Source: an uncultured delta proteobacterium (GTDB taxonomy: Bacteria > Desulfobacterota > RBG-13-43-22). From it: DNA of 64,000 bases. Under the pieces are notes generated by a model. The model did no database searches. It was given only the letters and a program-made list of their open reading frames with translations, and was not told the DNA's origin. Positions 7,947 through 58,943 of this stretch are shown one piece after another. The position numbers were made by a program, and so were the translations under genes. The stretch lies in NCBI GenBank assembly GCA_963711835.1, contig CAVQFQ010000004.1:192001-256000 (forward strand), in the 5' to 3' direction. The stretch's first letter is position 1; each line of letters opens with the position of its first letter.

Positions 7947-8220
7947 TCTTACCCTTTAGACAACCCCAGAAAAAAGACCCCCCGGTCCCTGTTGGTCACT
8001 ATTATTTTGAGACCCTTAATAAATAATGACCTTAGGGCTTGATTATCTTTTTTAGATTTGTTGAATATAAAATAGGGAGGTAATGGGGGTCAAGGGGAAA
8101 GATTTGGGCCTTGAGCAAGGAAAGCCGGGCTTAAGGAATCCCAAGGGCTGAAAAGGGCGGCCTGTTGTTTTCGCTTGATTAGTATGGTATGGGTCAGAAA
8201 CGGAATCCGAAACAGAGGAC

Positions 8221-9885: not shown

Positions 9886-9896
9886 TAAGCTTTAAA

Positions 9897-10180
9897 TTCT
9901 TACATCTCTTAGTCCGAGAATTTATCTCTAACTTCCCAAAATTAGGTGTAGGGGGATCCTATTTTTTATGTTGTCCAAAGGGTGACTAAGAGTCCCTAAT
10001 CCGGCCCGAATAACTAAGTTTATTTTATAGCAGGGCATTCACCCCAGCCCATTTCCAGCTTGGGTGTAAGCCTGTCCCGCCAGGCGGGACTCATGGCTTG
10101 GGGGTGGACAATTTAAAAAATAGGATCCCCCTACACCATTTCATCAGGACTTTAAAAAAATTTCAAATATCTTTGGTTAG
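9897..10180. mobile_element. Dispersed IR-cassette element, copy 1 (33-bp IRs at 9945-9977 and 10105-10137)
   Basis: Arms match 31/33; arms, core and flanks are homologous to the copies at 38.3 kb and 58.7 kb. Confidence 0.8.
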
Positions 10181-11232: not shown

Positions 11233-11338
11233 AGTATCGTTCAAAAGTTTTGGCACTGGCGCATTATTGCCTGACTAGGGGACCGGGGGTCTTCCAATGG
11301 GTATTAGAAATATAATGCCACAACTTTTGAACGATATC
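11233..11338. mobile_element. MITE-like element, 106 bp
   Basis: 21-bp subterminal IRs (11235-11255/11316-11336, 20/21 match) flanked by an 8-bp direct repeat CATTCATC (11225-11232, 11339-11346). Confidence 0.75.
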
Positions 11339-37356: not shown

Positions 37357-38247
37357 GATTTCCGTCCCCACCCCGCTGTCGGTGAACAGTTCCAACAGAA
37401 GGGCGTTTTCTACCCGGCCGTCGATGATATGGGCCTTTTCCACGCCCTGGGCCAGGGCTTCCAGACAACAATTGACCTTGGGGATCATCCCTCCGGCAAT
37501 CGTCCCGTCAGCCAGCAAACCGGGGATATCGGCGGCTTTCAGGGAAGGGATCAAGCGGCCTTTCCGATCTTTGACCCCTTCCACATCGGTCAACAGGATC
37601 AGTTTGGGGGCCTTTAAGGCCGCCGCCACCCGGCCGGCGACCAGATCGGCGTTGATATTATAGGTCCTTCCCTGCCGTCCGACCCCGATCGGTGCGATGA
37701 CCGGGATAAAATTATGATCTTCCAGGGTCCGGATGATCTCGGTATTGACCTCAATGACCTCACCGACCATGCCGATATCCATCAACTCCGGGGGATCTTC
37801 GGGGCCTCGGCTCGTGAAGACCTTCATTTTCTGAGCCAGGATGAGCTGGCCGTCCTTACCGCTCAAACCAATGGCCTTGCCGCCCTGTTGATTGATCAGA
37901 TGGACGATCTCCTTATTGACCTTCCCTCCCAGCACCATTTCGACCACATCCATGGTCCGGCTGTCTGTAACCCGGACGCCCTGGACAAACCGGGAGGTAA
38001 TGTGCATCTCATCCAGAACTTTTTTTATCTGAGGTCCCCCGCCGTGCACCACCACCGGATTAAGACCGATGTATTTCATGAGGACAATACTCTTGGCAAA
38101 GCTGTTTTTGAGCGTTTCATCCACCATGGCATGGCCGCCGTATTTGATCACCATGGTCTGATGATAGAAGCGGCGGATGTACGGCAAGGCTTCCATCAGG
38201 ATGGCCGCCTTTTCCCCAAAAGTCTGCTGGTCTTTATTCTTAGCCAT
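37345..38247 (-). CDS. argB: Acetylglutamate kinase
   Basis: [23 protein letters not shown]. Confidence 0.97.
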
Positions 38248-38266
38248 AGTTGCTAACGGCCTCTGT

Positions 38267-38502
38267 TCTGAGAATTTATCTCTATCAGGTGTAGGGGGGT
38301 CCTATTTTTTAAGTTGTCCAAAGGGTGATTAAGAGCCCCCAATCCGGCCCGAATAGCTAAGATCATTTGAGAGCAGGGCCTTCACCTTAGCCCATTGCCA
38401 GCTCAGGTATAGGCCTGCTTCCAAAACAGGTTCCGACCTTGGTCCGGCAAAGAAGTTCAGGGCTTTATGGTGGACAACTTAAAAATAGGACCCCCCTACA
38501 CC
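38267..38502. mobile_element. Dispersed IR-cassette element, copy 2 (IRs at 38288-38320 and 38471-38502)
   Basis: Arms identical except for one base in the T/A run; core homologous to copy 1; partial left flank TCTGAGAATTTATCTCT. Confidence 0.8.
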
Positions 38503-40434: not shown

Positions 40435-41337
40435 TTATCCTCTGGGATGGGCCTTTCGATAGACTTCAAGCAAGCGGCCCATGCTGATATGGGTATATTT
40501 CTGAGTAGTCGAAAGGCTTTTATGGCCTAAACATTCCTGGACGATACGCAGGTCGGCCCCGGCATTGAGCATATGGGTCGCGAAACTATGCCGCAGGGCA
40601 TGGGGGCTGATAGCCGGCGAAAGCCGGACCTCCCGGACCCGTCCTTTGAGACGCCGGGCCACCCCGCGGTCGCTGAGCCGCCGGCCCAGACGATTCAGAA
40701 AAACCGCCTCAGGATCCCTGATTCGAAATCCGGCCCCTTCCCGGGCCTTTTGCAGGGCCGCCTGGTAGAGCCTAAGGGCGGCTACCGCCTTCTTGCCGGC
40801 CGGGACCATCCGTTCCCGCCCCCCTTTGCCGCTGACCCGCAACAGGCCCAGAGAGAGATCGATATGCTCCCAATTCAGGGCGGTCAATTCACTCAACCGT
40901 ATGCCTGAGGCATAAAATAATTCCAGGATGGCCTGGTCCCGCTGTTCCAGGAAAGCGTCCTTGATCGGATCCCTTAAAAGGGTTTCGGCTTCCTTCTCGG
41001 AAAGAAAAGGGGGAATGGTCTTCTCCGCCTTCGGGGTCCGCACCCGGATCAGGGGATTCTCCTCCAGCCACCCTTTTTTCTGGGCAAATTTAAAACAGGA
41101 GCGGATGGAGGCCATCTTTCTGGCTACGGTAGTTTTCTTGTTCATTTTATGCAGGTGGCCGAAAAAACCTCTCAAGAGGGAGGCCTCTATTTGCTCCGCT
41201 TCCTCAACACCCTGGGCTTTTAGATAACCGTCCCATTCCCTCAAATCGCGCCCGTAACTGCGCAGGGTATGCGCCGAGAGCCGCTGTTCGATCTCCCCCT
41301 CTCTCAGAAAGGCCTCAATGATGATCTGGATATTCAT
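40435..41337 (-). CDS. xerC: Tyrosine recombinase XerC-like
   Basis: [32 protein letters not shown]; conserved xerC-hslV-hslU order. Confidence 0.9.
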
Positions 41338-58657: not shown

Positions 58658-58690
58658 GGGTGTCCTCCTAAAGCTTTTTTTATAATTAGA

Positions 58691-58943
58691 TTTTTACATC
58701 TTTTAGTCTGAGAATTTATCCCTAACCTTCCAAAATCAGGTGTAGGGGGGGTCTATTTTTTAAGTTGTCCATCCCAAAGCCATAAGTCCCGCCTCGGCGG
58801 GATGAATGCCCTGCTCTAAAATAAACTTAGTTGATTGGGCCGGATTAGGGGCTCTTGGTCACCCTTTGGACAACTTAAAAAATAGACCCCCCCTACACCA
58901 TTTCTTCGAGACTTTAAAAAAAGTTTCACATATTTTTGATTAG
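58691..58943. mobile_element. Dispersed IR-cassette element, copy 3 (perfect 33-bp IRs at 58739-58771 and 58867-58899; core inverted)
   Basis: Flanks align with copy 1 in direct orientation; the core aligns with copy 1 only as reverse complement. Confidence 0.85.

Follow-up and report, generated by a model that had tools for sequence, protein, structure and literature searches.

Bacterial MITEs are among the closest described relatives of the repeat analysed here, which is likewise short, non-coding, multicopy and intergenic, with both filled and empty sites. Each complete copy consists of a core between two inverted arms, held in an outer shell; the shell of copies 1 and 3 is denoted F1 and its sister shells F2, F3 and F4. 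The window is the entire 64,000-nt stretch of DNA that was analysed, its own genome assembly is labelled G000 (completeness 89%, contamination 6.4%), C-numbers denote contigs of that assembly and L-numbers the compared loci. Like MITEs, F2 and F3 end in terminal inverted repeats and are flanked by duplications, here of 8 bp (z 13.9; 39 and 30 copies). F1 lacks such terminal repeats and repeats TAG alone, and, unlike in MITEs, one cassette occupies at least four shells. The duplications of F2/F3 are AT-rich with the consensus AA....TT, near the published AANATNTT of ISH6/p-MULT 2 (PMC3942029); this is a partial match in which only the duplication was compared, and it is limited to the sister shells F2/F3 and does not extend to F1. 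That article reports an ISH6 family member in Desulfobacterium.

Invertons and shufflons (10.1101/2023.03.11.532203) also present a segment between inverted repeats in both orientations, here between species; the present family differs from them in that no invertase, fixed crossover or sigma-70-like promoter was found, in its stability between strains and in its more than 100 dispersed copies. REPIN-RAYT systems (10.1101/2021.07.10.451892) resemble the family in having two conserved inverted sequences and a more variable spacer, in being extragenic and in being long-lived in one lineage, whereas here the arms are not palindromes, no copies lie beside Y1 genes and the shells carry target repeats. 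In yeast, template switching is described as giving both arm homogenisation and spacer inversion (PMC8604942). The likeness to that account comprises the reversed spacer, identical arms, reversible flips over evolutionary time and the lack of a dedicated enzyme, although the yeast arms measure 9-16 bp and the spacers 2-5 bp, as against 33-bp arms and 95-215-bp spacers (cores) in a multicopy mobile unit here. Our literature searches found no description of this hairpin-cassette family.

The window contains three copies, together with a collapsed and a truncated sister shell:

7948..8015, minus strand: truncated F4 sister shell with one end, one arm and the core's first bases; inner boundary approximate
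9893..9944, plus strand: copy 1, shell left end, with TAA in place of TAG, directly past the mutM/fpg stop
9945..10137, plus strand: copy 1, arms 9945-9977 and 10105-10137 (94%) with a 127-bp core, forward
10138..10180, plus strand: copy 1, shell right end, upstream of mdh
11233..11338, plus strand: collapsed F3 sister shell that has lost its core and the greater part of its arms and lies between exact 8-bp direct repeats
38247..38502, plus strand: copy 2, between argB and hslU
38247-38287, plus strand: copy 2, variant left shell end
38288-38320 and 38471-38502, plus strand: copy 2, arms around a 150-bp core, forward
58687..58738, plus strand: copy 3, F1 shell left end, opening at the repeated TAG
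58739..58771, plus strand: copy 3, left 33-bp arm, 100% complementary to the right arm
58772..58866, minus strand: copy 3, core of 95 bp in the opposite orientation to the shell; a short variant with a small CCCGCC/GGCGGG palindrome
58867..58899, minus strand: copy 3, right 33-bp arm
58900..58943, plus strand: copy 3, F1 shell right end, closing with TAG

The flanks of copies 1 and 3, which are asymmetric and lie in the same orientation, agree at 44/52 positions on the left and 37/43 on the right. Between them, the core of copy 1, when aligned to the reverse complement of the copy 3 core, agrees at 85/94 bases and needs just one gap, of 33 columns; aligned directly, the two cores agree at 51/67 and the alignment is full of gaps. 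The preliminary description had proposed exactly this arrangement, a core reverse-complemented in copy 3 with a deletion of about 33 bp and bounded by 33-bp inverted repeats, and all of it stands, the arms being perfect in copy 3 and 94% identical in copy 1. It was also right that the core of copy 2 is forward like that of copy 1, and the right flank proves to be absent from copy 2, where no right shell end is recognisable. For copy 3 it gave the span 58691-58943, of which the right end holds and the start falls four bases short, the true ends being TAG 58687-58689 and TAG 58941-58943. The pattern of copy 3 is not due to chance, because the core has 130 matches genome-wide (E<=0.01) and the folding z-scores are -8.3 and -6.7. 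An Rfam search of the window at the gathering score returned two tRNAs only, and no RNA family for the hairpin element.

In G000, 129 of the 130 core profile matches could be parsed, and two of them represent one copy (~128 cores). The shells that house these cores are mobile and of at least four unrelated kinds, and scoring all copies for core against flank orientation, a check that had been proposed at the outset, revealed both orientations in every shell type. Among copies with both arms, forward and reverse cores number 14:11 in F1, 33:11 in F2, 24:3 in F3 and 14:3 in F4, so that 28 of 113 complete copies are reversed at the arms; a further eight records have no shell assignment. This tally includes hand edits: seven double-labelled F4 copies were set to forward, two F2 copies nested in F1 were set to F2, C7:43744 was taken out of F1, and C17:515056 was dropped as the second match of one copy. 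The F4 shell is flanked by constant TTAA. The same cassette also occurs within shells that have other terminal repeats (L017, L095, L123, C10:3278 and C14:19432), and there are therefore more than four shell types. Of 120 copies, 110 have arms of 31-34 bp, and in 103 of these 110 the arm starts with GG or AG; the inner ~22 bp of the arms are similar family-wide, and the outer ~10 bp are lineage-specific yet match within each copy.

The element was matched in 14 of 20 genomes of the same family and in none of 20 genomes of other families, and, in a GTDB scan, most of the titled records with several copies bear the label Deltaproteobacteria or Thermodesulfobacteriota. Viral contigs gave 0 matches to the element, and plasmids gave none. 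Nested or chimeric copies, with F2 or F4 inside F1 shells or arms, were observed at L181, C25:45073-45280, C4:455456, C16:106147 and C17:14742; these copies suggest that shells may be exchanged through insertion followed by deletion. One F3 copy (C10:53481-55975; L011:181-2676) holds, inside the core's small palindrome, a 2.1-kb two-ORF IS that consists of a 190-aa HTH ORF and an overlapping 423-aa frame with a DDE_Tnp_1 match (a possible frameshift), with ~15-bp inverted ends and a 7-bp repeat. Small contigs of the assembly duplicate regions of larger contigs at 96-98% identity (C1 versus C21, C27 versus C17, C24 versus C5) and are probably a second strain within it.

The F1 shell moves, repeating TAG: it is present in close-strain contigs at sites where G000 is empty, with TAG/TTAG repeated (L186 versus C21, L190 versus C23). 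Across 64 shells of 74-401 bp, the target reads (T/A)TAG followed by N, T/C, T and T, a one-sided consensus, and in place of a terminal inverted repeat the ends carry just an inverted motif that is sub-terminal and offset. The left-end motif is found in 18 of 21 family genomes. In addition to taking F2/F4 insertions, the F1 shell hosts unrelated passengers, namely hairpins of 7-bp tandem repeats in place of the cassette (C17:146650, C17:282180, C23:4457, L232, L252, L260 and L264). In genera g2/g3 (L227, L228, L244, L245), the F1 left end is a ~58-bp near-perfect hairpin, sometimes standing alone, and the right end is often a ~32-bp hairpin. One intergenic site, occupied by an F4 shell in G000 (C25:101486) and by one of type F1 in a close strain (L182), is either an insertion hot spot or a case of shell exchange. 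Of 74 tandem gene contexts, 47 have the shell antisense to transcription (p 0.027, uncorrected, with rough gene calls).

The enzymes that move the shells would be transposases or recombinases acting in trans; our searches did not find them. IS110 elements have non-inverted ends, a short repeated core, a sub-terminal inverted motif and a specific target, and F1 resembles them in its TAG core, one-sided target consensus and offset sub-terminal motif. The F1 ends are absent from the 30 IS110 loci examined, of 84 matches, and no parent with the same ends was seen in three PF06782 loci or in 60 loci chosen by F1 end motifs. G000 has no PF13751 match, and its lone PF05598 match is found where a contig ends, with no copy nearer than 20 kb. 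Nor does G000 contain an autonomous parent with the same ends, the long pairs being host genes or the unrelated IS in the F3 core; a transposase with F2/F3 ends was likewise not found. An IS110-family element at L204 and L222 (C13, C15) has an apparent TATAG at both ends and lacks the F1 motifs. An integron cassette was considered for F1 and rejected: attC sites recombine after a conserved G and carry paired L boxes, whereas a G precedes the left T-TAG in only 20% of the 64 shells and no paired L boxes were seen by eye.

The core has inverted in place at its inverted repeats, as had been proposed, since two loci, L125/L126 and L091/L109, carry opposite core orientations in different species. 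Between the two genomes with L125 and L126, the flanks agree at 128/150 and 129/150 positions and the shell at 47/50 and 21/24, and the core agrees at 82/176 positions read directly and at 145/152 (95%) read reversed. The reversed core has thus diverged no more than the shell, from which we infer inversion on site instead of replacement or new insertion. In L126 one and the same A>G change is found in both arms. At a third locus compared across species, L042/L082, the orientation does not differ, so that two of three such loci differ. Left out of these counts were C25:101700 versus L182 (different shells at one site), copy 1 versus L154 (one flank, 75%), pairs matched via neighbouring repeats, and identical records. 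Trees of 25 F1 copies imply 7-9 orientation changes, as many as for shuffled labels, and none of 200 bootstraps gave a one-change tree, these trees being poorly resolved, with starred branches that force only 1-3 changes. At C9:17269-17527, compared with L189/L178, a 151-bp core has been swapped in place for a 97-bp form with the CCCGCC/GGCGGG palindrome; this short form occurs there, in copy 3 and at two other loci, twice forward and twice reversed.

The flips are slow. Where close strains or duplicates resembling strains were compared (92-99.7% identity; the assemblies represent majority states), none of seven loci differs in orientation. The loci compared were C9:17354 with L178 and L189, C4:272069 with L185, C1:87 with C21:25806 and L191, two C17/C27 pairs, L179/L184 and L180/L187, of which the comparisons with L191, L179/L184 and L180/L187 were read by eye. 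A two-state estimate, rough and ignoring spread by transposition, gives ~2-13 flips per substitution per site. Roughly, then, the flip rate differs from that of point mutation by no more than about tenfold and is nowhere near the rates of phase variation. Among contigs from sequencing runs (24 runs, best share 0.26), four were compared; none of their pieces ran across copy 3, and no joint with a change of strand appeared.

The position of the crossover varies. Among reversed F2/F3 copies, as read by eye, a 1-base arm indel moves with the core in nine and stays with the shell in two (C16:1817 and C17:650590), and three others are mosaic or homogenised. There are therefore two or more crossover intervals, of which one spans only ~7 bp. 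Other repeats flip as well: the outer ends are swapped in two F2 copies, and a 19-base central loop is reversed between ~13-bp imperfect repeats in one clear copy of 114 loop records. Flips thus occur at three nested inverted-repeat levels, those at the arms (28/113) being far commoner than at the other levels.

The two arms of a copy are also more alike than arms of different copies, with a divergence of 0.075 within copies versus 0.188 between them. Derived changes common to both arms number 24 versus 6.9 in shuffles, 13 versus 4.2, 15 versus 2.6 and 2 versus 0.3; they are well above shuffles in F1-F3 and marginal in F4, and are partly inherited within sub-lineages. The same multi-base variant was found on one arm of unrelated copies (C9:17321, C17:91050, C18:29415, C13:54168 and C7:34647, not in L178), a distribution that suggests conversion between copies. 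Deletions of a hairpin are expected to join at short direct matches. By eye, the short forms of F2-F4, of 7-86 bp, are joined at 2-5-bp direct matches, and one of them retains the variant letter run of the full right arm. The short forms of F1, about 12 in number, have a near-uniform 21-27-bp hairpin.

The flip is real, in place, recurrent and slow, and it is probably passive. We consider the family to be a MITE-like, gene-less repeat whose core is inverted passively and slowly via template switching or arm-to-arm recombination, neither of them calling for a specific enzyme and with no switch function predicted, and give this reading a probability of about 0.7. A long hairpin at the replication fork would let the new strand switch template, and such a switch would invert the spacer, copy one arm onto the other or skip the hairpin altogether. 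The passive reading is favoured because a long hairpin that undergoes template switching or slippage yields inversion, arm homogenisation and deletion alike. The preliminary description had offered hairpin or template-switch repair as one of several options, and it fits best, given the variable crossovers, the homogenised arms, the flips at other nested repeats and the deletions. Unfavourable to passive copying are the 2-5-bp spacers of the yeast study, far shorter than the 95-150 bp found here, and three features of the family: the near-fixed arm length, the conserved inner ~22 bp and the presence of one cassette across unrelated shells. Neither the constant arm length nor the cassette common to several shells is accounted for by the passive model.

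The same three features form the case for an enzyme acting in trans, be it a parent transposase, an unknown recombinase or a nickase, that would cut near the conserved inner part of the arms and thereby cause low-rate flips and transfer of the cassette between shells. We regard such an enzyme as unlikely. The narrow range of arm lengths and the GG/AG start speak for it, as do the occurrence of the same core within at least four shells that differ in their ends and target repeats, the preponderance of arm-level flips and a resemblance, seen by eye, between the inner end of the arm and the F2 shell end. The variable crossover speaks against it, and by eye neither a standalone cassette nor a duplication beside the arms was seen. 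Longer copies carrying genes between the same arms, which the preliminary description had proposed to look for, are lacking in G000 and among the GTDB-scan loci listed. It had also stated that no cognate invertase or transposase is adjacent; across the family, no tyrosine-recombinase, Y1 or IS110 match lies within 1.9 kb of any copy. Carried further, the arm hairpin would be a shell-hopping passenger in unrelated MITEs (8-bp-duplicating, TTAA-duplicating and TAG-core), cut at its arms by the enzyme in trans, and the shell with the TAG core would be a miniature version of a recombinase-type element not yet described; we hold this fuller picture to be just as doubtful. Twelve Y1_Tnp (PF01797) matches were observed in G000 (C12:141793, C17:165498, C8:125762, C5:298416, C10:57915, C18:33319 and others), the nearest copy being 2.0 kb off; eight lie in 288-412-aa open frames, and these genes are unusually numerous and long for the IS200 type.

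A programmed switch of the inverton or shufflon type, in which a dedicated site-specific recombinase would flip the core often and alter the expression of neighbours, had also been put forward, and we find it quite improbable. The near 50:50 orientation of F1 (14:11) would suit it, and so would the intergenic position of the copies, one of which, copy 3, lies upstream of an ECF sigma gene; that site, however, is empty in 18 of 18 relatives, and none of the seven close-strain loci differs in orientation. A recombinase-type site consists of two half-sites around a fixed crossover, whereas the crossovers here are not fixed and the arms have no internal dyad (median best 0.45-0.55 versus 0.55 in shuffled arms, none above shuffles). 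Serine resolvases/invertases (PF00239) have no match in G000, an assembly that at 89% completeness could have missed an invertase gene. Seven tyrosine-recombinase (PF00589) matches do exist in the genome; the nearest, at 40435-41337 in the window, 2.2 kb from copy 2, is XerC-like, and as a candidate invertase it was rejected because it is part of the housekeeping cluster xerC-hslV-hslU-argB, where the gene that we take to be hslV is named from its position. A search for sigma-70-like promoters and for terminators found neither around copies 1 and 3 in either orientation, and core orientation is random with respect to transcription, with 36 sense and 38 antisense in tandem gene contexts under rough gene calls.

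It is very improbable that the arm-bounded core is a separate element that inserts either way into a hairpin target, with the short forms as empty targets, an alternative that had likewise been raised. The ~12 short F1 forms with their near-uniform hairpin would be such targets, the outer ~10 bp of the arm differ between shells, and shells do insert into one another. The same-locus pairs, however, share one core, reversed, which largely refutes two-way insertion as the source of orientation; the F2-F4 short forms, with their direct-match joins and the one retained right-arm letter run, look like deletions, and no target duplication was seen beside the arms. Two-way insertion may have been the route of the cassette's first entry into each shell. 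That the reversed cores are assembly artefacts is a negligible prospect, despite the 6.4% contamination of G000 and the difficulty of assembling hairpin repeats: the arms and core of each copy carry variants private to it, independent close-strain assemblies reproduce the orientation, forward (L178, L189) or reversed (L185), and a misassembly confined to copy 3 is countered by the reversed arrangement in 11 of 25 complete F1 copies and in other genomes.

The best remaining leads are the fixed-arm cassette common to the shells and the parent of the TAG shell. If the passenger reading is true, the cassette would be an element that parasitises MITEs, and a new recombinase would stand behind the TAG shell. 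If inversion is passive, as we prefer, the family provides a natural data set from an uncultured bacterium, made up of over 100 copies with inverted repeats nested at three levels and of pairs at the same locus, in which the flip rate could be related to arm length and perfection. It also carries a warning, in that the occurrence of both orientations among paralogous copies does not prove an inverton.
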